Positions 143 through 13,585 of a DNA stretch of 32,000 nucleotides are shown one piece after another. Position numbers and translations under genes: made by a program. The DNA comes from Mycolicibacterium smegmatis. Its GTDB lineage: Bacteria; Actinomycetota; Actinomycetes; Mycobacteriales; Mycobacteriaceae. How positions within the stretch are numbered: position 1 is the first letter of the stretch; each line of letters opens with the position of its first letter. A model generated the notes under the pieces. It made no database searches and was not told the origin of the DNA. It saw only the letters and a list, made by a program, of their open reading frames with translations. The stretch is from positions 2,850,001 to 2,882,000 of the forward strand of contig NZ_LN831039.1 of the NCBI RefSeq assembly GCF_001457595.1, given 5' to 3'.

Positions 143-625
143 TCAGGTCCTCCGCACCGGGGTCCGGTGATCTGCCACCGCGGATCTGATCGCCTCGACC
201 GCAGCGGGGACGGCGGCGGCGACCGCGTCGGACAGTCCGATGCCTTCGGCGACACTGCCCACCTCACAACCGATCACGACCGTGGGCGGCACGGCGCCGC
301 CGAGGGCGCGCACGGTCGCGAACACGGCCGCGGGATCCATGGCGTGCGCATCGAGGCCGGGGGTCGTGTCCATGGGGTCGGCCTCGAAGACGCGTAGGGT
401 CCCGGGCCGGACGCGACACGGCAGGGCGTCGACCAGCACCAGGAGGTCCCAGCCCTCGAGCAGGTCGTACGCCAGGTGCAGCCCGCGGATTCCGTAGTCG
501 CACAGACGGACACCCGCGGCAGCCACGTCCGGTGGCACACGGCGCAGCACCTCGGGACCGAACCCGTCGTCACCGAGGAAGATGTTGCCGATGCCGGCCA
601 CCAGGACCGAGTGCGTGATCGTCAC
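143..625 (-). CDS. [NiFe] hydrogenase maturation endopeptidase (HupD/HyaD/HycI family), 160 aa
   Basis: Track ORF. N-terminus VLVAGIGNIFLGDDGFG matches the GxGNxxxxDDGxG motif of hydrogenase C-terminal processing proteases. The co-encoded large subunit carries a 22-aa extension after CxxCxxH, the expected substrate. GTG start sits 3 nt after the micro-ORF stop. Confidence 0.85.
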   Translation of the reverse strand: MTITHSVLVAGIGNIFLGDDGFGPEVLRRVPPDVAAAGVRLCDYGIRGLHLAYDLLEGWDLLVLVDALPCRVRPGTLRVFEADPMDTTPGLDAHAMDPAAVFATVRALGGAVPPTVVIGCEVGSVAEGIGLSDAVAAAVPAAVEAIRSAVADHRTPVRRT

Positions 626-628
626 TCC

Positions 629-748
629 TCACATACGCCGCATCTTCAGATACCGCTGCGCGTCCGGTATCGAACGAACTCCGACCACCACGCCCGCGAC
701 CACCACGGCCGCGACGACGACGACCGCGGCCCACCCGACTGCTTCCAT
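629..748 (-). CDS. 39-aa single-pass membrane micro-protein (not in the ORF track, below its size cutoff)
   Basis: Manual translation: MEAVGWAAVVVVAAVVVAGVVVGVRSIPDAQRYLKMRRM. ATG at 746-748 is preceded by GAGAGGAG with a 6-nt spacer. It fills the otherwise empty gap between the 441-aa ORF (stop 774) and the protease (start 625). 31 of 39 codons end in G/C, like neighbouring genes. Hydrophobic helix followed by a basic tail. Confidence 0.55.
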   Translation of the reverse strand: MEAVGWAAVVVVAAVVVAGVVVGVRSIPDAQRYLKMRRM

Positions 749-773
749 CTGGCACTCCTCTCACTGCGTCCGC

Positions 774-2099
774 TCATATGGGTTCGATTTCGTCCGGCGC
801 GAAGTACAGGTAACGGCCGTACCAGTCGTGCAGGTCGGCCGCCGGATCGTCGTCGAGCACCACACCGACATGCCGTTCGCCGTCGACGTCCTCGTGAATG
901 GAGGCCACCCAGGCGATCCGGTTGTCGAAGAACAGATCCTGTGCGTCGGCGCGGCGAGACGGATGCAGCCGCACCCGGCAGCCGCGGCTGACCGCGACAC
1001 CGTTGACCAGCACGGCATCGACCGCCGGGTCGACGGCGTTGTCCGCCAGCGGATCCCACCACGGCACGCCGTCGGGGACCTCCGGGAGCAGGCTGGACCG
1101 CTCATCGTCGGTGGTGCGCAGTACGCCGTGCAGGTCGAGCATCGCCTCGGCGGACATGGCGTCGCACCGGTCGATGATCTGCGCGGCGAGCGGGTCGGTC
1201 GCGCGCGCCAGCAGCTTCTCCTCGTCGGTCAGCGCCATCACGCGCAGGGTGAGGATCTCGTCGATCTCGCACGAGTCGTACAGGGCGCCCCGGCTCTGCG
1301 CGGCGATCTGGGGGTGGTCGTAGAGGATGATCGGTGAGACCAGCATGAGATCTCGGGTCCCGTCGGGCCCGGCCAGAACCGGGAAGCAGCGGTGCCGCTC
1401 ACACCGCGACACTGCTTCGGCCGCGCGATCATCCGGTTCGAGCAGTGACACGAACTCGCCGTCGTCGATCTCGGCGATCAGGTGGGTGCCGAGGAACGAC
1501 ACCGCGGTCGCGCTCTGCCTGTCCTCGACCGGAGCGGCGCGGTTGCGCACCGTCATCGTCACCCGGAACAGGTCGCCGTCGGGTTCGGCCCGAAGGAGCA
1601 GTTCACCGCACAGGGCCCGGCGGGTGCGAACCAGACGCCCGCCCTCGACGGTCTCGATCTCGCGGCCGCCTTCGACGGTGATCGGGTGCGTTCGCGAAGT
1701 CGTGAGATCATCGACATCGAACGGGCCGAGGGTGACCTGCTGCGCGACGGCCTCGTCCCAGCTCAGCCATGAGCCCGCGGTGGACACGAGTTCGTCGACG
1801 GGGACGAAACTTTCGCGCGCGGCGTCGTCGAGGTGGCGGCGCTCGGCCGACCTGTGCTGCAGCTGCAGGAAACGGACCGTCACCGAGAGCCGTCCGCGGC
1901 CGTCGCCGCGGACGAGGAGCTGTGCGGACATCGAGCTGTTCTCGCCGATCCCGGCGGATTCGGCGCCTTCGGGCCCCAGAACGCCCCACTGCCAACGGCA
2001 CTGGTTCTTGGCCGCATCCCCACGGTAGGGGTACAGCAGGTAACCCTCGTAGAGCACGGCATCGGCGACTGCGAGGACCTGTTCTGTGGCGGTGCTCAT
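774..2099 (-). CDS. Hydrogenase-operon protein of unknown function, 441 aa
   Basis: Track ORF 774..2606 trimmed to ATG 2097-2099 (MSTATEQVLAV...), which overlaps the upstream gene stop as ATGA. The longer version would overlap the upstream gene by about 500 nt. No motif I can assign. No hydrophobic segments. Confidence 0.75.
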   Translation of the reverse strand: MSTATEQVLAVADAVLYEGYLLYPYRGDAAKNQCRWQWGVLGPEGAESAGIGENSSMSAQLLVRGDGRGRLSVTVRFLQLQHRSAERRHLDDAARESFVPVDELVSTAGSWLSWDEAVAQQVTLGPFDVDDLTTSRTHPITVEGGREIETVEGGRLVRTRRALCGELLLRAEPDGDLFRVTMTVRNRAAPVEDRQSATAVSFLGTHLIAEIDDGEFVSLLEPDDRAAEAVSRCERHRCFPVLAGPDGTRDLMLVSPIILYDHPQIAAQSRGALYDSCEIDEILTLRVMALTDEEKLLARATDPLAAQIIDRCDAMSAEAMLDLHGVLRTTDDERSSLLPEVPDGVPWWDPLADNAVDPAVDAVLVNGVAVSRGCRVRLHPSRRADAQDLFFDNRIAWVASIHEDVDGERHVGVVLDDDPAADLHDWYGRYLYFAPDEIEPI

Positions 2100-2752
2100 G
2101 GGATGTCCTCCCGGGCCAGCAGTGTGCCGACCGCTTCGTCGAACGACAGCAACCCCCGCTGGGTCTTGTACCCGGCGAGCCGCTCGAGGGTGTCGCGGTC
2201 CAGCCGCAGCCAGCCGGTGTGGGGGAAGTGCCGCTCCATCAGGAGCTGCCACACCGCGACGGGCATGTCGACGTGGTCCTCGCGGTCCCACGGGATGTGC
2301 TGGACCGCGAGCCCGCCTGCACCGCGGGTGAACACGGTGCCGCTGAACAGGAATTGCAGCGGCACCGTGCCCTCCCGCAGTGCGTGCAGATATTTCGACG
2401 CCGCGACCTCGAAGTCGTACGTGCAGTTCAACGCCAGGTCGATCTGTGTGGCGCCGGTGAAGCCGGGGACCATCGCCGCCGTGTGCTGCCACAGGAACGT
2501 GTGCTGCGTGGTGTTCCAGCGGTCGCGGGGCCCGAACAGATCCAGTAGACCGGCGGCCTCGGCGTCGGTGTAGGCGCGCCGTAGCGGGTCGATGCGAACC
2601 TGACACCGCAGCGCGATCGCGTGCACAGGGTCTTCACCCGTCGCGGACACGCCCAGCCGCGCCGTCAGGATCGGTGTCACCGCAAAGGGTTCCGGCGCGA
2701 TGTCGAGAACCGCGAAGGTGACCGCGAGCGGATCTGCGCCAAGGCTGGTCAC
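2096..2752 (-). CDS. Hydrogenase-operon protein of unknown function, 218 aa
   Basis: Track ORF 2096..3451 trimmed to GTG 2750-2752 (VTSLGADPLAVTFAVLDI...), which overlaps the upstream stop as GTGA. Strong GC3 bias. No recognisable catalytic motif. Confidence 0.7.
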   Translation of the reverse strand: MTSLGADPLAVTFAVLDIAPEPFAVTPILTARLGVSATGEDPVHAIALRCQVRIDPLRRAYTDAEAAGLLDLFGPRDRWNTTQHTFLWQHTAAMVPGFTGATQIDLALNCTYDFEVAASKYLHALREGTVPLQFLFSGTVFTRGAGGLAVQHIPWDREDHVDMPVAVWQLLMERHFPHTGWLRLDRDTLERLAGYKTQRGLLSFDEAVGTLLAREDIP

Positions 2753-3399
2753 GGCGGCACCTCCGTGCCCCGCTCGCGCAGCGAGTCGAAGAACTCCGCG
2801 ATGTACCTGCGGACGTCCTGACCGCCGTCGAAGCCGCGCCACAGCAGCCGCAGCCTCCCCACGAACTCGTAGCACGTGTCGATGGGCACGAGATGACAAG
2901 CGGGAGCGGTGTTCTCGTCGTCGCCCTGGTCGACGCGGAGCATCAACGCCTCGGTGTCGTCGGCGAGCAGCGTGGCCCGTGGATCGGCGTTCTCGATGTC
3001 CTGCCAGGCGGTGAGGTCCAGTTCGGATTCGGTCGCGCCGGCCGGGCCCGGATAGAACGCGGCCACCCGTCCGAGGACGGAGTTGCGCATGAAGAACACC
3101 ACACCGACCGGAATCTGCAGCGCCTCCAGTTCGCGCCTGTCCAGGGCGAATTGCGGAAACGTCAGGTAGCGATCCGGCACGGCGCGGTACCGCAGCTCGG
3201 CATGATCGTGGGTGAACAGCAGATAGCAGGCCCGGCACACGCACATCAGCTGCCGGCCTTCGACGTTGACGACGTGCTGGTGGTGCCCGCCGATCGGTTC
3301 TGCGCACATCTCGCAGCACTCGTCGGTGCTCGCAGCCGGGCCGCCACGGACGTCCCGGGTCGCGCGGATCCGGGCCAGGACGTCCTGCGGGCCGGTCAC
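2749..3399 (-). CDS. Cys-rich hydrogenase-operon protein of unknown function, 216 aa
   Basis: Track ORF. GTG start 3397-3399 overlaps the hhyE stop (GTGA). N-terminal cluster CCEMC-x20-CVCRAC (CCxxC...CxCxxC) looks like a zinc-ribbon/rubredoxin-type or Fe-S metal site. Confidence 0.75.
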   Translation of the reverse strand: MTGPQDVLARIRATRDVRGGPAASTDECCEMCAEPIGGHHQHVVNVEGRQLMCVCRACYLLFTHDHAELRYRAVPDRYLTFPQFALDRRELEALQIPVGVVFFMRNSVLGRVAAFYPGPAGATESELDLTAWQDIENADPRATLLADDTEALMLRVDQGDDENTAPACHLVPIDTCYEFVGRLRLLWRGFDGGQDVRRYIAEFFDSLRERGTEVPP

Positions 3400-4319
3400 G
3401 GTCCGGCCTCACCTGCGGTGGACCACAGGGCCAGCGTCGGCACACCGTCACGCATCAGGACCGGCACGGGTTCGAGCTGGGCGGAATCCGACAGGCCCGC
3501 GTGGACCACGTCGAAACCGGTGGCGCAGTGCGGGCATCGCAACACCTGCCCGGTGAGCACCGCACCGGCGAACGTGCGGCCGCACGATGCGCAGCGGTCG
3601 TGGTAGGCGAAGTATTCGTCGCCGACCCGGCAGGCCATCACCGTGGCTCCGTCGACGCGGAACCCACCCACCTGACCGGGGGAGAGGCCGTCGAGCTCGG
3701 GGACCGCATGCCATTCGACGTGGCGCCTGCCGTCGGAGTGCACACGCGCCAGCAGCGATTGCGCGGGGATCACGGCAGCAGGTTCCGGTTCGGCGTTCAC
3801 CACCTCGATCGACGACACCTCCGGGGCCGCGGCCAGCACGGCGTCGGAGATCGCGAGCTCCAAGGTGGCCGCCGACGACGGGCAGCTCTTGCAGCTGCCG
3901 CTGAACCGCAACCGCGCCACCGCACCGTCTGCCCCTGGCACGACGTCGAGCAGTCGGACATCACCGCCGTGGGAACCGAGATACGGCCGCACGCGGTCGA
4001 GGGCGTCGGCGATGCGGCGGTGCACCGGATGCGGGTGCAGGCCGTGCACCAACAGCAGGCTCGCCACCAGATCGTCGGCCGCGAACGTCCCGGCGAGCTC
4101 CGGTGCGGCCGTGACCGCGGCGCGCACCATGCGTTCCAGCGCGGCGCCGTAGAGGTCGGTGACCTCGCGCACCAACTGCTCGGCGCGGGCCCGCGCGGTC
4201 GGGCCGGCCGCGGCGTCGAGGAGGCTCTCGATCCGCTCACCCGCCGTGCGCCATCGGGCCTCGTCGCCGGACTGTGTGTCAACGGGAACGTCGGCAAGTG
4301 GCGTGACGGCGGGCGCCAT
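3396..4319 (-). CDS. hhyE: Putative iron-sulfur protein: NifU-C-like domain plus Rieske-like domain (HhyE-type), 307 aa
   Basis: Track ORF, starts 3 nt after the hhyL stop. The central segment RVRPYLGSHGGDVRLLDV...GSCKSCPSS resembles a NifU C-terminal CxxC module. The C-terminal segment HDRCASCG-x15-CPHCATGFD resembles a Rieske fold with altered ligands. The position matches the Fe-S protein reported as required for Hhy activity in M. smegmatis (from memory). Confidence 0.8.
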   Translation of the reverse strand: MAPAVTPLADVPVDTQSGDEARWRTAGERIESLLDAAAGPTARARAEQLVREVTDLYGAALERMVRAAVTAAPELAGTFAADDLVASLLLVHGLHPHPVHRRIADALDRVRPYLGSHGGDVRLLDVVPGADGAVARLRFSGSCKSCPSSAATLELAISDAVLAAAPEVSSIEVVNAEPEPAAVIPAQSLLARVHSDGRRHVEWHAVPELDGLSPGQVGGFRVDGATVMACRVGDEYFAYHDRCASCGRTFAGAVLTGQVLRCPHCATGFDVVHAGLSDSAQLEPVPVLMRDGVPTLALWSTAGEAGP

Positions 4320-4322
4320 GCG

Positions 4323-6119
4323 TCAGTCCCCGGTCGCGGACTGTGTCGGAGTGTGCAGCAGGTCCAAGGTTTTTCCGCCGCCGAGGTACATGTGCACACC
4401 GCACGGCAGGCACGGATCGAAGCTGCGCACCGTGCGCATGATGTCGATGCCCTTGAAGTGCTCCCGATCGTTCTCCTCGAAGATCGGCTGACCCTGCACG
4501 GCGTCCTCGTAGGGCCCCGGTGTGCCGTAGCTGTCACGGGGATTGGCGTTCCACGGCGTCGGTGGGTACGGGTGGTAGTTCGCGATCTTGCCGTCGCGGA
4601 TCACCATGTGGTGGCTCAGCACGCCGCGAACGGCCTCGGTGAACCCGCAGCCGATGCCCTCGTCGGGCACCTCGAACTTCTCCCACGTCTTGGTGCGGCC
4701 CGCGCGGATCTCGGTGAGTGCCTTCTCGGCGAAGTGCAGCGCACACGCCGCGGCGTAGGCCTGGAAGTACGTCCTGGCGCGGTTGCGTTCGATGGTGTTG
4801 CTGCCCTTGGCCGGGATCTTCCACTCGAATTCGACGGGTCCCTTGAGCGCGGTCTTGGGCAGGTTGATCTGCACGCTGTTGCCGGTCGACCTGACGTAGC
4901 CGATGTCGACGAGGCCTGCCAGCGCGGTCGCCCACAACCGTGCGAGCGGTCCGCCCCCGGTGTCGAGGGCGAGGTGGTCCTTGCCGTCGAACCACCGCGG
5001 CGACATCACCCAGCTGTAGTTCTCGTCGAAGTCGCGCTTCTGCGGCTTGGGGTTGGTGTGCTGATTCCACGGATGCCGCCGGTCCACCGGATTGCCCAGC
5101 GGATCGGTCTTGACGAACATCTCCTGGTCTTCCCAGTCGTCGTAATAGCTGTGGCCCAACAGGATCCGGATGCCGAGGTTGATATCCACCAGCGATGTGG
5201 TGACCAGCTTGCCGTCGACGACCACGCCGGGGGTGACGAACATCTTGCGGCCCCAGGCCTCCATGTCGCGGTAGCTGAAGTTGCAGTGCTCGGGGTCCTG
5301 GAACGAACCCCAGCACCCCAGCAGCGTGCGGCGCAGACCCACCTGCTCGTACCCGGGCAGTGCCTCGTAGAAGAAGTCGAAGAGGTCGTCGTGCATCGGG
5401 ACGACCTTCTTCATGAACTCGACGTAGCGCATCAACCGTGTCATGTAGTCGGTCATCAGCTGGATCGTCGCCACGGTGCCGACCCCGCCGGGATACAGCG
5501 TGGACGGGTGCACATGGCGACCTTCCATGAGGCAGAACATCTCTCGGGTCCACCGGCTGACCTGCAGCGCCTCACGGTAGAACTCGCCGGTGAACGGGTT
5601 GAGGGCCCGCATGATGTCGGCGATCGTCCGGTAGCCGTGCATGCCCGCGTGCGGCGCCTCGGTGTTCTCGGCCTTGGCCAGCACACTCGGATTGGTCTCG
5701 GAGACCATCTTCTCGCAGAAGTCCACCCCGACCAGGTTCTCCTGGAAGATGTTGTGGTCGAACATGTACTCCGCGGCCTCACCCAGGTTGACGATCCACT
5801 CGGCGACGTGGGGCGGTTGCACGCCGTAGGCCATGTTCTGGGCGTAGCACGAGCACGTGGCGTGGTTGTCACCGCAGATGCCGCAGATGCGACTGGTGAT
5901 GAAGTGCGCGTCCCGCGGATCCTTGCCCTTCATGAACAGCGAGTAGCCCCGGAAGATCGACGACGTGCTGTGGCATTCGACGACCTCGCGGTTCTCGAAG
6001 TCGATCTTGGTGTAGATGCCGAGGCTGCCGACGATGCGTGTGATGGGGTCCCACGACATCTCCACCAGTTGGCCCGGCTCGCGTTCGGTGTCTGACGGCT
6101 TGGGAGCTGTGGTGGTCAT
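4323..6119 (-). CDS. hhyL: [NiFe] hydrogenase large subunit, group 1h-like, 598 aa
   Basis: Track ORF 4323..6221 trimmed to ATG 6117-6119 (MTTTAPKPSD...). N-terminal Ni-Fe ligand motif TSRICGICGDNH. C-terminal motif SFDPCLPCGVH followed by a 22-aa tail (MYLGGGKTLDLLHTPTQSATGD). Confidence 0.95.
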   Translation of the reverse strand: MTTTAPKPSDTEREPGQLVEMSWDPITRIVGSLGIYTKIDFENREVVECHSTSSIFRGYSLFMKGKDPRDAHFITSRICGICGDNHATCSCYAQNMAYGVQPPHVAEWIVNLGEAAEYMFDHNIFQENLVGVDFCEKMVSETNPSVLAKAENTEAPHAGMHGYRTIADIMRALNPFTGEFYREALQVSRWTREMFCLMEGRHVHPSTLYPGGVGTVATIQLMTDYMTRLMRYVEFMKKVVPMHDDLFDFFYEALPGYEQVGLRRTLLGCWGSFQDPEHCNFSYRDMEAWGRKMFVTPGVVVDGKLVTTSLVDINLGIRILLGHSYYDDWEDQEMFVKTDPLGNPVDRRHPWNQHTNPKPQKRDFDENYSWVMSPRWFDGKDHLALDTGGGPLARLWATALAGLVDIGYVRSTGNSVQINLPKTALKGPVEFEWKIPAKGSNTIERNRARTYFQAYAAACALHFAEKALTEIRAGRTKTWEKFEVPDEGIGCGFTEAVRGVLSHHMVIRDGKIANYHPYPPTPWNANPRDSYGTPGPYEDAVQGQPIFEENDREHFKGIDIMRTVRSFDPCLPCGVHMYLGGGKTLDLLHTPTQSATGD

Positions 6120-6221: not shown

Positions 6222-7277
6222 CTACCAGGTGCGGGTGGCCCCGGATTCCAGCTTCGTACCGCGATGCCGCCACCGTGGTTCCTTGTCCACGGTGCGGCCG
6301 GTGATGTGGCGCAGGCTGCGGATGGCCGAGCCGTAGAGACCCGATGCGGCAGTGGAGACCTTGCCGCCGGGCGGCTCGTCCATGAACGGCATGAACTTGT
6401 CGGGGAATCCCGGCATCGTGCACCCGATGCAGATGCCGCCGACGTTGGGGCAGCCGCCGATACCGTTGATCCACCCGCGTTTCGGCACGTTGCACTTGAC
6501 CACGGGGCCCCAACACCCGAGTTTGACAATGCATTTGGGGGAGCCGTACTCGGTGGCGAAGTCGCCCTGCTCGTAGTATCCGGCGCGGTCGCACCCCTCG
6601 TGCACCGACTGTCCGAACAGCCACTTCGGCCGCAGCGCGTCGTCCAGCGGGATCATGGGCGCCTGATCGGTGGCCATGTACAGCAGGTAGGTCAGGGTCT
6701 CGGCCAGGTTGTCGGGATGGATCGGGCAGCCCGGCACGCACACGATCGGTATGCCCGCCTTGCTCTTCCAGTCCCAGCCCAGATAGTCGGGCACGCCCAT
6801 GGCGCCGGTCGGGTTACCGGCCATGGCATGGATCCCGCCGTAGGTGGCGCACGTGCCGACGGCGACCACCGCGGTGGCCTTCGGGGTGAGCCGGTCGAGC
6901 CACTCGCTCGTGGTGATCGGTTGCCCGGTCGCCGGGTCGTTACCGAACCCGCACCAATACCCTTCGTTCTTGATCTCCTCGTTGGGGATCGAGCCCTCGA
7001 CGACGAGTACGAACGGGTCGAGTTCACCGCGTTCGGCTCTGAAGAACCAGGCGAGGAAATCGTCGGCCCCGCCCGTGGGCCCGCATTCGAAATCGATGAG
7101 GGGCCAGTGGACGGCGATCTTGGGCAGGCCGGGGAGCGCCCCGAGAGCGATCTCCTCGATGCTCGGTTGCGTGGCGGCAGTCAACGCCACAGAATCACCG
7201 TCACAACTCAATCCGGCGTTGATCCAAAGCACATGGATCAGTGCCTGTTCCGCCTTGACTGCAGCCTCCGTTGGCAT
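6222..7277 (-). CDS. hhyS: [NiFe] hydrogenase small subunit without Tat signal, 351 aa
   Basis: Track ORF. It begins MPTEAAVKAEQALIHVLWINAGLSCDGDS with no RRxFxK twin-arginine leader. Fe-S ligand-rich segments: GTCATYGG, CVPGCP, GCWGPVVKCNVP, CPNVGGICIGC. No C-terminal membrane helix. Confidence 0.95.
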   Translation of the reverse strand: MPTEAAVKAEQALIHVLWINAGLSCDGDSVALTAATQPSIEEIALGALPGLPKIAVHWPLIDFECGPTGGADDFLAWFFRAERGELDPFVLVVEGSIPNEEIKNEGYWCGFGNDPATGQPITTSEWLDRLTPKATAVVAVGTCATYGGIHAMAGNPTGAMGVPDYLGWDWKSKAGIPIVCVPGCPIHPDNLAETLTYLLYMATDQAPMIPLDDALRPKWLFGQSVHEGCDRAGYYEQGDFATEYGSPKCIVKLGCWGPVVKCNVPKRGWINGIGGCPNVGGICIGCTMPGFPDKFMPFMDEPPGGKVSTAASGLYGSAIRSLRHITGRTVDKEPRWRHRGTKLESGATRTW

Positions 7278-7386: not shown

Positions 7387-8160
7387 TCAATGGATCCTTT
7401 CGCCCAACCACTCGTACCACGCCGAGAGACCATCGCCCCGCGTTGCCGAGGTCTGCAGGATGGTGACGGCAGGGTTCACCGATCGTGCGTAGCGACAACA
7501 GGTTTCGATGTCAAAGTTCACGTAGGGAAGCAGGTCGATCTTGTTGAGGATCACCAGCCCGGCCGCGGCGAACATGTGGGGGTACTTGAGGGGTTTGTCG
7601 GTGCCTTCGGTGACCGAGATGACGACGACCTTCTGGTACTCGCCGAGATCGAACAGCGCCGGACACACGAGGTTTCCGACATTCTCGATGAACAACAGCG
7701 AACCGGGGGAGGGATCGAGTGCGTCGATTGCACGGTGCACCATCGACGCGTCGAGGTGGCATCCGGCGCCGGTGTTGACCTGAACCGCGCGTGCGCCGGC
7801 CGCACGGATCCGGTCGGCGTCGAGCAGGGTCTCCTGATCGCCCTCGATCACCGCGACCGCGTGGTCACGCCCGAGATCGCGGATCGTGCGTTCGAGCAGC
7901 GTGGTCTTGCCCGCCCCCGGCGAACTCGTGATGTTGAGCGCCAGGATCCCGCGCGCGGTGAGCCATTCGCGGTTCTGTTGGGCGAGCATGTCGTTCTTGG
8001 CCAGCACGCGCTGTTCGAGCGTGACGGTCTCGGTGGGCGGGTGGTCGTGGGTGTGTGGGTGATCGTGATCGTGCTCGTGGTGGTGCGGCGGCGCTTCGCC
8101 GGCGAGGGTGACCGGGACACCGGCGCCGTCGGCCCCGCCGCATCCGCAGGTTGCGCACAT
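7387..8160 (-). CDS. hypB: Hydrogenase nickel-insertion GTPase HypB, 257 aa
   Basis: N-terminal MCATCGCG metal-binding motif, His-rich stretch HHHEHDHDHPHTHDH, and P-loop SSPGAGKTTLL. The ATG lies 1 nt after the hypA stop. Confidence 0.95.
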   Translation of the reverse strand: MCATCGCGGADGAGVPVTLAGEAPPHHHEHDHDHPHTHDHPPTETVTLEQRVLAKNDMLAQQNREWLTARGILALNITSSPGAGKTTLLERTIRDLGRDHAVAVIEGDQETLLDADRIRAAGARAVQVNTGAGCHLDASMVHRAIDALDPSPGSLLFIENVGNLVCPALFDLGEYQKVVVISVTEGTDKPLKYPHMFAAAGLVILNKIDLLPYVNFDIETCCRYARSVNPAVTILQTSATRGDGLSAWYEWLGERIH

Positions 8161-10357: not shown

Positions 10358-11257
10358 TTACTTGTCGGCCTGCCCGGTGAGCACATCGGCACCCGGCGCG
10401 CCCTCCTGTTCGACCGCTTCTGCGTGCATGGGTGCGGGGCCGCGGGTGGATCTGCGCAGCCTGCGTTCGATGCGTGTCGCCAGGGCCGACAGCGCGAAGT
10501 TCACGCTGATCATCAGGACCGCGATCACGATCAGTGCCGGCAGGTAGTTGCCGTAGGACGAACCGATGACGGTGCCTTGCCGCACCATCTCGACGAACGT
10601 GATCTGGTAGCCGATCGCGGTGTCCTTGAGCACCACCACCAACTGCGATACCAGCACGGGCAGCATCGCGGTGATGGCCTGCGGCAGCTGGATCATCCGC
10701 ATGGTCTGCCACCACGACAAGCCGAGCGATGCGGCCGCCTCGGATTGCCCGCGGGGCAGGGAATGCACACCGGCGCGGACGATTTCGGCGATGACCGAAC
10801 CGTTGTAGAGCGTGAGCCCGGTGATGACGCCGGCCAGCGCGAGGTGCTTGGACGGGAACACGTCGTACGCCGCGTAGAAGAAGTACGCGAAGATCATCAT
10901 GATCAGCACCGGGACGGCGCGGAAGAACTCCACGATGACCGTGCACACCCAGCGGATCGGCCGGATCGGCGCCAACCGGCCGACCCCGAGCGCCAGCCCC
11001 AGGGCCAGCGCCAGCACGATCGACACCGCGGCCGCGGTCAGCGTGCCCTGCACGCCCGGCAACACGTAGGTCTTCCACAGGTTCGCGGTGAGGAACGGTT
11101 CCCACTTCTCCGACGTCAACTGGTTCTTGGTCCACAGTTGCCACAGCACGAACGCGACCACCAGTGTGCCGATCACCGCCGACACCGCGGTCAGGATCCC
11201 GTTGCGTACCCGCGCGCGCGGTCCGGGCGCGTCGAACAGAACCGATGCTCCGGTCAC
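10358..11257 (-). CDS. gluD: Glutamate ABC transporter permease GluD, 299 aa
   Basis: Polytopic His/Glu/Gln/Arg-type permease. GTG start overlaps the gluC stop (GTGA). Last gene of the gluABCD arrangement known from Corynebacterium glutamicum. Confidence 0.85.
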   Translation of the reverse strand: MTGASVLFDAPGPRARVRNGILTAVSAVIGTLVVAFVLWQLWTKNQLTSEKWEPFLTANLWKTYVLPGVQGTLTAAAVSIVLALALGLALGVGRLAPIRPIRWVCTVIVEFFRAVPVLIMMIFAYFFYAAYDVFPSKHLALAGVITGLTLYNGSVIAEIVRAGVHSLPRGQSEAAASLGLSWWQTMRMIQLPQAITAMLPVLVSQLVVVLKDTAIGYQITFVEMVRQGTVIGSSYGNYLPALIVIAVLMISVNFALSALATRIERRLRRSTRGPAPMHAEAVEQEGAPGADVLTGQADK

Positions 11258-11934
11258 CGCGCCACCGCCAGTCTCTTCCCCAGCCAGCCGAACAACAGGC
11301 CCACCGGAAGCGTCAGGAGGATGAAGCCCAGCGCCATGATGGTGCCGACCGTCAGCAGCGCGGCGGTGTTCTCGATCATCGCCTTCATGAGCAGGGCGGC
11401 CTCGGCGACACCGATGGCCGAGGCGATCGTGGTGTTCTTGATCAGCGCGATCAACACCGACCCGAGCGGGATGATCACGGCGCGAAAAGCCTGCGGCAGC
11501 AGGATGTATCGCAGGTTCTGCCCGAACGTGAAACCGAGTGAGCGGGCCGCCTCGGCCTGACCCAGCGGCACGGTGTTCACACCCGACCGGATCGTCTCAC
11601 ACACGAAAGACGCGGTGTAGACGGTCAATCCGAGCACGGCGAGCCGGAAGTTGCTGTCGGCGATCGACGTGGGGGAGTTGGGGTCGACCAGCGTGATCCG
11701 CAGGGTCTGGCCGACGCCGAACGAGCAGAACAGGATGATGAGCGTCAGCGGGGTGTTGCGGACCACGTTGACATACGCCGTCCCCATCCAGTTCATCACC
11801 GGGATCGGTGCCAGCCGCATCGCGGCCAGCACCGTGCCCAGGATGAGCGCCCCAACCGCGGAGTACACCGTCAGTTGGATGGTTGTCCAGAACGCCGCGA
11901 AGATCTCGTCGCGGTACTCGTCGAATATTTCCAC
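11254..11934 (-). CDS. gluC: Glutamate ABC transporter permease GluC, 226 aa
   Basis: Track ORF. Amino-acid ABC permease with an EAA-like loop (GQAEAARSLGFTFGQNLRYILLPQA). Confidence 0.85.
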   Translation of the reverse strand: MEIFDEYRDEIFAAFWTTIQLTVYSAVGALILGTVLAAMRLAPIPVMNWMGTAYVNVVRNTPLTLIILFCSFGVGQTLRITLVDPNSPTSIADSNFRLAVLGLTVYTASFVCETIRSGVNTVPLGQAEAARSLGFTFGQNLRYILLPQAFRAVIIPLGSVLIALIKNTTIASAIGVAEAALLMKAMIENTAALLTVGTIMALGFILLTLPVGLLFGWLGKRLAVAR

Positions 11935-11952
11935 GGTTGAGGCGGCGTCCGA

Positions 11953-12774
11953 TCAGTCGCGGTCGACGGCGGGAGGCTGCGGTGCCTGGATGCCTGCCGG
12001 TCCGAGGTTCTTGTCGAAGGCCTCTTTCCAGGCGCCGCTGGATTCCATCTTCTCGATCGCGTCGTTGATCTTGTTGCGCAGCTCGGTGTCGTCCTTCTTC
12101 AGGCCGATGCCGTAGCGCTCCTCGGAGAACGTGTCACCGACGAGCTTGAAGGTGCCTGGGGACTGTGCGGCGTAACCGGCGAGGATCACCTCGTCGGTGG
12201 TCAACGCGTCGACCGCGCCGTTCTTGAGCGCCTCGACGCACGCCGAGTAGGTGTCGTACTGCTGCAACTGCACGCCCGGGTACTCATCCTTGATCCGCTG
12301 GGCCGGCGTGGAACCCGACACCGAGCACAGCTTCTTGTTGTTCTCCAGCGACGCGGCGCCGGTGATGTCGTTGTTGTCGGCGCGCACCAGGAGGCTCTGC
12401 CCCGTGATCAGGTACGGCCCGGCGAAGTCGACCTTCTCCTTGCGGGAGTCGGTGATCGAGTAGGTGGCGGCGATGAAGTCGACCTGACCGTTCTGGATCA
12501 GCGTCTCCCGCTGCGCCGACGGGGCCTCCTTCCACTCGATCTGGTCCTCGCTGTAGCCCAGCTCGTTGGCCACGTACTTGGCGACGTCGACGTCGAACCC
12601 GGTGAGCGTGCCGTCGGGCTGCTTCAGACCGAGACCCGGCTGGTCGTACTTGGTTCCGATGACGATCGTGTCGCTGTCGCCGCCGCTGTCGCCACCACCG
12701 CATGCCGTCGCCGCGAACGGCAGGGCGATGGCGAGTGCGACAGCACCGGCGACGCGTTTGGGAATGGACCGCAT
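11953..12774 (-). CDS. gluB: Glutamate-binding lipoprotein GluB, 273 aa
   Basis: Track ORF trimmed to ATG 12772-12774 (MRSIPKRVAGAVALAIALPFAATACGGG), preceded by AAAGGAA. Signal peptide plus lipobox-like ATAC. Family-3 solute-binding protein body. Confidence 0.85.
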   Translation of the reverse strand: MRSIPKRVAGAVALAIALPFAATACGGGDSGGDSDTIVIGTKYDQPGLGLKQPDGTLTGFDVDVAKYVANELGYSEDQIEWKEAPSAQRETLIQNGQVDFIAATYSITDSRKEKVDFAGPYLITGQSLLVRADNNDITGAASLENNKKLCSVSGSTPAQRIKDEYPGVQLQQYDTYSACVEALKNGAVDALTTDEVILAGYAAQSPGTFKLVGDTFSEERYGIGLKKDDTELRNKINDAIEKMESSGAWKEAFDKNLGPAGIQAPQPPAVDRD

Positions 12775-12799
12775 TGTTCTGATTCCTTTCACCGGAACG

Positions 12800-13585
12800 T
12801 TAGTGATGCAGGATTTTGCCGAGAAAATCTTTGGCACGTTCGCTTTTCGGGTTGTCGAAGAACTCGGCAGGTGAGGAGTCCTCGACGATGGCGCCGTCGG
12901 ACATGAACACCACGCGGTCCGACGCCCGGCGCGCGAAACCCATCTCGTGGGTGACCACGACCATGGTCATGCCCTCCGATGCCAGCGACGACATCACGGC
13001 GAGGACCTCGTTGATCATCTCCGGGTCGAGCGCGCTGGTGGGCTCGTCGAACAGCATGACCTTGGGGTTCATCGCCAGCGAGCGGGCGATCGCGACGCGC
13101 TGCTGCTGACCACCTGACAACTGGGCGGGGTACTTGTCGGCCTGGTTGGCCACCCCGACGCGTTCGAGGAGGGCGAGCGCGTTCTCCCTGGCCTTGTCCT
13201 TGGCGAACCTGCGGACCTTCATCGGCGCGAGGGTGACGTTCTCCAGGATTGTCTTGTGCGCGAACAGGTTGAACGACTGGAACACCATGCCCACATCCGA
13301 ACGCAGCTGTGCGAGCCTGCGCCCCTCGGCGGGCAGGACCTTCCCGTCGACCATGATCGTGCCGGAATCGATGGTCTCGAGGCGATTGATCGTGCGGCAC
13401 AACGTCGATTTGCCCGAGCCCGAGGGGCCGAGCACCACCACGACCTGACCCTTGCCGACGTCGAGGTTGATGTCCTTGAGCACATGGAGTTGCCCGAAGT
13501 GCTTGTTTACTCCCTGAAGTGAGATCATCGGCACATCTGATTGCGCCGCACCGTCGACCTGCGGCTGCTCGCCGGGGCTTCCCAT
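12800..13585 (-). CDS. gluA: Glutamate ABC transporter ATPase GluA, 261 aa (alternative start at MISLQGV 19 codons downstream)
   Basis: Walker [10 protein letters not shown], signature LSGGQQQRV, Walker [12 protein letters not shown]. Near-collinear with C. glutamicum GluA as I remember it. Confidence 0.9.

Follow-up and report, generated by a model that had tools for sequence, protein, structure and literature searches.

A DUF6893 transmembrane micro-protein in group 1h [NiFe]-hydrogenase gene clusters: a candidate membrane tether for Hhy

Introduction

How can a hydrogenase that has no membrane segment of its own be held at the membrane? Group 1h [NiFe]-hydrogenases (Hhy), to which much of the biological consumption of atmospheric H2 is attributed, have been reported since 2014 to be membrane-associated without a transmembrane segment, a signal peptide or a cytochrome b partner. 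Hhy is confined to the membrane fraction, stays there in 5% cholate, and shows no obvious transmembrane region or signal peptide (10.1101/769216). There is no gene for a cytochrome b-type anchor (PMC6883350), and the same puzzle has been stated in the literature for the Hyd-1h enzyme of Methylacidiphilum. The DNA considered here is a stretch of 32,000 nucleotides from Mycolicibacterium smegmatis (contig NZ_LN831039.1, positions 2,850,001 to 2,882,000; the whole stretch is referred to as the window, and coordinates are those of the window). Within its 1h gene cluster, between a 438-residue conserved hypothetical protein called HhaC here and a HycI/HybD-type maturation protease, lies a small open reading frame (ORF) of 39 codons at 629-748 on the minus strand. 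Its product is a single-helix micro-protein of the DUF6893 family. The presence of such a micro-protein in all of the actinobacterial and most of the other 1h loci examined gives the question of membrane association a concrete target.

The micro-protein gene and its family

The micro-ORF extends from an ATG at 748-746 to a TGA at 631-629, on the minus strand, and encodes MEAVGWAAVVVVAAVVVAGVVVGVRSIPDAQRYLKMRRM. A Shine-Dalgarno (SD) sequence, GAGAGGAG, is located at 755-762 on the same strand and is followed by a 6-nt spacer, TGCCAG (749-754), before the start codon. G or C ends 31 of the 39 codons, slightly under the neighbouring genes, where the G/C fraction at third codon positions (GC3) is 0.86-0.91. 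The ORF occupies the gap from the stop codon of HhaC (774-776) to the GTG start of the protease (625), which lies 3 nt beyond the micro-ORF stop; the two share one frame in this strain. All of these elements (the ORF, the SD with its spacer, the codon bias, the fit to the gap and the closeness of the stop to the protease) had been pointed out in an earlier note made from the DNA alone, and all are confirmed in the sequence. The length of the ORF is not statistically remarkable by itself, since a closed ORF of at least 39 codons arises in 353 of 5000 mononucleotide shuffles of the gap (7%), as expected in DNA of about 69% GC. The reality of the micro-ORF rests on conservation, not on its length.

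The earlier note also described the protein as unlisted, which is true only of the ORF list that accompanied it: the peptide is present in NCBI, UniRef and nr, in identical form on 518 contigs, and belongs to Pfam PF21833 (DUF6893). The match to that family has an E value of 6.4e-15 and 55.3 bits, against a gathering cut-off of 24.6, with residues 9-39 aligned to positions 2-32 of a 32-position profile. NCBI uses the name 'DUF6893 family small protein' for relatives. A profile search of 1.84 billion cluster representatives returned 371 clusters at E <= 1e-3, and nearly all of the top 150 are exactly 39 residues long and end in ...RY[LM][KR][MI]RxM. The micro-protein has the features of this family, with about 39 residues, one hydrophobic helix and a terminal S-I-P-D-x-x-R-Y-L-K-x-R-x-M, and a profile hidden Markov model finds exactly one copy within the window.

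A published microarray table lists MSMEG_2713 as a peptidase, MSMEG_2714 as a 'hypothetical protein', and MSMEG_2715 and MSMEG_2716 as conserved hypotheticals; because of its position within this gene order, the micro-ORF is probably MSMEG_2714. MSMEG_2713 to MSMEG_2715 are not mentioned in the M. smegmatis omics supplements that were checked for evidence of translation. The homologue in C. necator H16 is PHG071 (AAP85824.1), annotated since 2003. The micro-ORF is a bona fide DUF6893 member and not a discovery as a gene. A link between DUF6893 and the membrane association of Hhy appears to be unexplored in the searchable literature, and the value of the present analysis lies in linking a catalogued family with an unsolved question and in extending that family past the limits of its Pfam model.

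Conservation and protein-level selection

One genome per species was scanned with an HhaC alignment. At least 585 stretches encode a relative, and the best 80 loci were kept; these include Mycobacterium, Nocardia, Rhodococcus, Arthrobacter, Aeromicrobium, Jatrophihabitans, Pseudonocardiales and Micromonosporaceae. The micro-ORF is found directly after HhaC in 80 of these 80 actinobacterial loci, one copy being truncated by the end of its contig. Taken from these and other fetched loci, 80 complete orthologues and the window copy form a set of 81 distinct nucleotide sequences. Within this set the start codon is ATG in 78 cases and GTG in three, and an SD-like 4-mer, typically GAAAGGAG, occurs within 20 nt of the start in every member (81/81). 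The length of 39 residues is fixed in nearly all actinobacterial members.

Invariant residues are specified by more than one synonymous codon (four for G5, two for D29, five, including AGG, for R32 and two for Y33), and the same is true of near-invariant residues (four codons for S26, four for P28 and five for R37). The final residue, M39, is invariant in 81 of 81 orthologues. The Nei-Gojobori (NG86) ratio of nonsynonymous to synonymous substitution (dN/dS) is about 0.35 overall, about 0.65 for helix codons 6-24 and about 0.20 for tail codons 25-39, values which are rough because dS is saturated (>1). Conserved SD, frame and length, together with a synonymous bias in substitution, identify the micro-ORF, at the level of sequence, as a genuine protein-coding gene under protein-level selection. 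This is the outcome of a check proposed in the earlier note, namely frame conservation and synonymous-biased substitution at related clusters, and it held in 80 of 80 genome loci.

Distribution and gene order

Five DUF6893 members chosen blind to context all lie in 1h clusters next to the protease (5/5), in the order HhyS-HhyL-NifU-DUF5947-DUF6084-HhaC-(X)-HycI, with X denoting the small gene. Three 1h clusters carried on plasmids have HhaC directly against the protease gene or overlapping it, with a small ORF of the same ending just past the protease. The small ORF of C. necator pHG1 is PHG071, MKGFLKYLVLPALVVALLANIKDIRRYIRIRSM, recognised by Pfam as DUF6893; that of S. fungicidicus, also after the protease, ends in ...ANVWPDVRRYLRIRSM; and in Methylocystis parvus a 32-mer, MGLFEIILGLLILALIAFNFRDIVRYIKITMM, carries the tail motif in the same position and has no Pfam match. 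A Streptomyces 38-mer is likewise recognised by Pfam as DUF6893. By these and the metagenomic loci below, the micro-protein occurs beyond Actinobacteria. In every context sampled, the micro-protein gene is restricted to the group 1h system.

Metagenomes were scanned with the C. necator HhaC as anchor, which yielded 80 diverse loci of 42-74% GC; 58 of these were long enough to assess. A hydrophobic small ORF with a terminal D-x-x-R-Y-x-[KR]-I-[RS]-x-M-stop is present in 49 of these 58 loci: 42 are downstream of the protease, three are between HhaC and the protease, and four are in loci without a protease. Most of the nine negatives carry looser variants of the tail motif. Two gene orders therefore recur, HhaC-X-protease in Actinobacteria and HhaC-protease-X in C. 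necator, S. fungicidicus, Methylocystis, the locus L171 and the 42 metagenomic loci. Where the micro-ORF stop and the protease N-terminus could be compared (78 loci), the median distance is 11 nt. The gene just downstream of the micro-ORF varies (protease, hypA, hypC or hypF), and the spacing to it ranges from -16 to 590 nt, from overlap through about 100 nt up to about 590.

About 10 actinobacterial loci have other small genes in the interval from micro-ORF to protease. In Nocardia, Nocardioidaceae, Jatrophihabitans, Pseudonocardiales and some metagenome-assembled genomes, this interval encodes one or two small proteins that are very acidic and apparently disordered (L051 7429-7755; L057 7576-8101; L060 2952-3519; L064 3778-4309; L076 7502-8097; L084 7522-8077; L085 5540-6091; L079 7578-7766; L170 5151-5357). 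They contain the motifs EEPQxERGxPGSRDTGSDEPxGGPxDRP and PPYEGRKExAD.

Some metagenomic 1h clusters encode longer relatives of about 80-95 residues, in which the same last 12 residues follow a different N-terminal part, and this retention supports the C-terminal motif as the functional unit. These proteins (L129 6878-7120; L148 6893-7135; L097 5257-5541; L127 7635-7868; L163 6221-6769; also in L138, L144, L167 and L113) consist of a polar N-terminal stretch, one hydrophobic helix, an internal NPxxRRYM or HPxxRxQV, and a terminal PD[VF]ERY[FLM]K[LIM]R[SAK]M. To judge from its sequence, the internal element may be a duplication of the tail motif. A divergent tail, (K/R)EIPxxxRExRIxRM, follows a hydrophobic helix in L005 (about 12211-12356) and L115 (6009-6272). 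In the first of these, from Streptantibioticus cattleyicolor, the variant comes after DUF5947, far from the protease, and has an 11-residue extension past the Met; the cluster order there is rearranged to protease, HypB, HhaC, HhyS, HhyL, HhyE, DUF5947. The Methylocystis 32-mer, the forms of about 80 residues and the EIPxxxRExRIxRM forms all fall outside PF21833, and by these sequences the family is wider than the Pfam model.

A search of plasmids with the 39-residue peptide by tblastn gave no match, though plasmids of M. intracellulare, C. necator and Streptomyces do encode the micro-protein; the miss is a failure of sensitivity and not absence. The M. intracellulare plasmid (NZ_CP012886.2, 437 kb) carries a complete 1h cluster and, after it, a nuo (NADH dehydrogenase) operon; the micro-ORF of this cluster, at 14304-14423 of L001, is absent from the PLSDB gene table. 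Four longer proteins that fuse the C-terminus of HhaC to the micro-protein (P0084, P0159, P0178 and P0221) were considered as a functional link and rejected: three of the four have garbled helices that resemble frameshift errors. They are not among the 120 HhaC homologues listed and are not used as evidence.

Architecture and membrane topology

The earlier note had read the peptide as one hydrophobic helix followed by a positively charged tail, and structure prediction bears this out. With the family alignment, AlphaFold2 (AF2) places a helix at residues 2-25, a break at S26-I27 and a second helix at 28-38, with a mean predicted local distance difference test (pLDDT) score of 91.6. The transmembrane helix proper (residues 6-24, at 677-733 on the minus strand) is variable in sequence and conserved in hydrophobicity. 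In a column profile built from 160 DUF6893 members, it varies freely among hydrophobic residues, while G5 and the tail are fixed. The basic C-terminal tail, RSIPDAQRYLKMRRM (residues 25-39, at 632-676 on the minus strand), always ends in Met-stop and is predicted to be cytoplasmic; D29, R32, Y33 and M39 are invariant in it, and P28 and R37 nearly so. Its hydrophobic moment is low (0.19-0.26, under the shuffle mean), which makes a mere amphipathic helix on the lipid surface unlikely and a specific binding or docking motif more likely. On the best reading of these sequences, the tail would be the conserved working part and the helix a generic anchor.

The tail has a net charge of about +4 (four Arg and one Lys against one Asp) and the N-terminus one of -1 (one Glu), and by the positive-inside rule a single-pass, N-out/C-in orientation is predicted. 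A chain of 39 residues would be released before its helix exits the ribosome, so that insertion would have to be post-translational. Inspection of HhyS finds no twin-arginine signal; the enzyme would thus face the cytoplasm, on the same side as the tail.

The proposal that the micro-protein is the sole membrane element of its operon stands for the proteins visible in the window, where its maximal 19-residue Kyte-Doolittle mean is 2.82 and that of the others is at most 1.55. This crude scan covered HypC (partial), the protease, HhaC, DUF6084, DUF5947, HhyE, HhyL, HhyS and HypB; the remainder of the hyp cluster lies outside the window, and the proposal does not reach that far.

A possible membrane tether for Hhy

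What might such a protein do? It may be that the 39-residue peptide is a dedicated, single-pass inner-membrane component of the group 1h (Hhy) system. Since translation would end with so short a chain still in the ribosome tunnel, insertion would be post-translational; the acidic or neutral N-terminus of the peptide, itself short, would face outward, and its basic, invariant tail (S-I-P-D-x-x-R-Y-L-K-x-R-x-M-COOH) would lie in the cytoplasm, alongside the signal-less Hhy. The helix would then serve only as a generic anchor, and the tail would dock onto one of the soluble Hhy-system proteins, holding it at the membrane. The favoured partner would be the hydrogenase complex itself, either mature or in its last maturation step. 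Tethering of that complex would account for the detergent-resistant membrane association of an enzyme without a transmembrane segment of its own. Orientation, mode of insertion, binding of a protein by the tail and identity of the partner are all points that we infer here, and a membrane tether with the Hhy enzyme complex as its favoured partner is put forward tentatively, at somewhat under an even chance.

A stronger form of the proposal is doubtful, though it would have wider consequences. In this form, DUF6893 would be the missing membrane subunit of 1h hydrogenases, and its tail would clamp HhyLS(E) to the inner face of the membrane, causing the resistance to cholate and being needed for the delivery of electrons to menaquinone. 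It could then be needed for the physiological high-affinity oxidation of atmospheric H2, a behaviour that disappears once Hhy is treated as a soluble protein. If the protein is the tether, it would also be relevant to the purification or engineering of native-like Hhy for biocatalysis.

Several observations weigh against tethering. The constant neighbour of the micro-ORF is the maturation protease, on one side or the other, and the gene lies in the accessory block and not beside hhyS and hhyL, which indicates a maturation role at least as much as a structural one. The occurrence of DUF6893 can be set against the location of the enzyme in two species: it is present in M. smegmatis, where Hhy is membrane-bound, and it is present as PHG071 in C. 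necator, where, in a secondary citation within PMC7174314, the 1h enzyme is reported to have been purified from the cytoplasm. Methylacidiphilum is reported to have other membrane proteins in the operon instead. Three of the 58 assessable metagenomic 1h loci (L093, L111 and L117) appear to be without the micro-ORF, and the saturation of dS leaves the dN/dS values rough. The literature search returned no article naming DUF6893 or PHG071, and a search of the PDB returned no related chain, its sole match (E 0.71) being due to chance.

Other functional explanations

The alternative that survives best is that the micro-protein is a maturation factor. Here the partner of the tail would be the HycI-type protease, HhaC or a Hyp protein, and the C-terminal cleavage that ends the maturation of the large subunit would be brought to the membrane, the finished enzyme being held there by something else. 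This is possible and nearly as likely as the tether, although we would not expect it on balance. The protease is the one neighbour common to both gene orders, the spacing is tight at the median given above, start and stop codons overlap in L086 and L088, and the gene is placed among accessory genes. Against these points, about 10 actinobacterial loci have other small genes separating the micro-ORF from the protease, and the S. cattleyicolor variant is far from it. We know of no HybD/HycI-type protease that requires a membrane partner, and maturation alone would not explain the cholate-resistant membrane binding of mature Hhy. Were the protease the partner, it would be the first time that a step of [NiFe] maturation has been linked to the membrane.

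A less probable explanation is that the micro-protein modulates another membrane complex, such as a nickel permease, a menaquinone-linked respiratory complex or YidC/Sec, and is co-regulated with Hhy while binding no Hhy protein. Many single-helix bacterial micro-proteins do modulate membrane complexes, among them CydX, KdpF, AcrZ and MgtS; a HoxN-type nickel transporter is located near the C. necator cluster, and Hhy passes electrons to the respiratory chain. However, proteins of this kind usually conserve contacts in the transmembrane helix, whereas in DUF6893 constraint is weakest in the helix and strongest in the soluble tail. The confinement of the gene to 1h clusters in every context sampled also argues against this explanation, which we regard as improbable.

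It is very improbable that the peptide itself has no protein function and acts in cis, whether as a leader peptide, as an arrest peptide or as a device for translational coupling, like MifM, SecM and TnaC. Conservation up to the last codon, the strong SD and the co-directional maturation gene (protease, hypA, hypC or hypF) that is always close behind would suit such a role, and MifM-type sensors do combine an N-terminal transmembrane segment with a conserved C-terminus. However, the downstream gene and the spacing to it differ by lineage, and the 15 residues past the helix would leave the whole transmembrane segment in the exit tunnel at termination, making force-sensing physically implausible. 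Nor is there a conserved RNA structure. Within the micro-ORF, a perfect 7-bp inverted repeat, GATACCG-N9-CGGTATC, is found at 649-671 of the window; it covers codons 26-34 (S-I-P-D...R-Y-L), some of which end unusually in A or T (ATA, TAT and GAT, with ATA and TAT rare). As a conserved hairpin this candidate was rejected, all seven pairs being retained in only 3 of 81 orthologues and without covariation. The region has no excess folding energy relative to shuffles (z-score +0.87), and Rfam gave no match at E <= 1 in window positions 400-1000. An invariant G5, a near-fixed length of 39 residues and a helix of conserved hydrophobicity would all be unnecessary for arrest in the tunnel.

The last explanation is that the micro-ORF has arisen by chance in GC-rich DNA, is an RNA element or forms the N-terminus of the protease by stop-codon read-through. 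It is favoured by the frequency of equally long ORFs in gap shuffles, by the inverted repeat and by the in-frame protease of this strain, with only TGA GGA between (626-631, minus strand). It is refuted by the hairpin, folding and Rfam results, by the turnover of synonymous codons across 81 sequences that keep frame, length and residues, and by a micro-ORF/protease frame relation of 26/24/28 across the three frames in 78 loci. A frame relation that is random in this way means that a read-through fusion is not a conserved feature, and the fusion was rejected. In the studied strain one read-through event would yield a membrane-anchored protease, which looks incidental.

The surrounding gene cluster

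Read from high to low coordinates, the minus strand of the window carries a canonical cluster for a group 1h [NiFe]-hydrogenase, the Hhy enzyme of atmospheric H2 uptake. It begins with HypB (7387-8160), HhyS (6222-7277), HhyL (4323-6119) and HhyE, a NifU+Rieske protein (3396-4319). These are followed by DUF5947 (2749-3399), DUF6084 (2096 to about 2800), HhaC (774-2090; of the PHG069/MSMEG_2715 family, a name used only here) and, beyond the micro-ORF, the HycI/HybD-type [NiFe]-hydrogenase maturation protease (MSMEG_2713; 143-625, GTG start; PF01750, TIGR00072). This protease falls in a 90%-identity cluster, and the members of that cluster that bear a species name are from Mycolicibacterium smegmatis. 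HypC, of which only the start is in the window, occupies 1 to about 140. The start and stop codons of HhyE and DUF5947 overlap at 3396-3399, and overlaps among HhaC, micro-ORF and protease are seen in the loci L086 and L088 (Streptomyces and Virgisporangium loci). Codon overlaps of this kind along the accessory block suggest, from sequence, one translationally coupled unit that leads from the structural into the maturation genes.

The upstream neighbour, HhaC, is a conserved hypothetical protein that is specific to group 1h clusters and has at least 7998 homologues; despite this number it has no Pfam or NCBIfam match. Its AF2 model (pLDDT 71.6) has a confident, beta-rich core at residues of about 50-210, and a small C-terminal beta domain that resembles PetP/BAH-type SH3-like folds. 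The best Foldseek match is DrmA of DISARM (E 8e-7), but its TM-score is only 0.23, and the function of HhaC is not identified by it. A few kilobases upstream of the hydrogenase cluster, an ATP-binding cassette (ABC) amino-acid transporter set is encoded at 10358-13585 on the minus strand; its translations comprise two permeases, a lipoprotein-type solute-binding protein and an ATPase.

Comparison with known systems

The closest comparison is with the DUF6893 family and PHG071, of which the micro-protein is a direct member, with the same length of 39 residues, the same helix, the same ...PDxxRYLKxRxM end and the same hydrogenase-cluster context. Among characterised hydrogenases, the C-terminal transmembrane tail of group 1 small subunits (E. 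coli HyaA and HybO, C. necator HoxK) resembles the proposed tether in that one helix holds a soluble dimer. In those enzymes the helix is part of the small subunit, lies at the periplasmic face after twin-arginine export and contacts cytochrome b. HhyS, unlike HyaA, HybO and HoxK, has no hydrophobic C-terminal tail in the Kyte-Doolittle scan. The two arrangements are not homologous; here the helix belongs to a separate 39-residue gene product, the enzyme would face the cytoplasm, and no cytochrome b is encoded.

A second comparison is with HucM, of the M. smegmatis group 2a hydrogenase Huc, which is likewise a small extra subunit encoded in the cluster and links a signal-less, high-affinity, O2-insensitive hydrogenase to the membrane. 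HucM is reportedly a much larger soluble protein that oligomerises into a tube reaching the membrane and has no transmembrane helix. There is no sequence relation between HucM and the micro-protein, and cholate releases Huc but not Hhy.

In size (30-50 residues), in the single helix and in the position of the gene inside the operon of the complex that is served, the micro-protein is also similar to CydX of cytochrome bd, KdpF and AcrZ. The conserved contacts of those proteins are largely in the helix, and their partner is an integral membrane protein. By contrast, the micro-protein conserves a soluble basic tail, and the window encodes no integral membrane partner. Finally, MifM, SecM and VemP resemble it in having a hydrophobic segment at the N-terminus and conserved residues at the C-terminus, and in being encoded upstream of another gene. 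In the DUF6893 protein, however, too few residues separate helix and stop for force to be sensed, neither the downstream gene nor the spacing is conserved, and no conserved RNA switch accompanies the gene.

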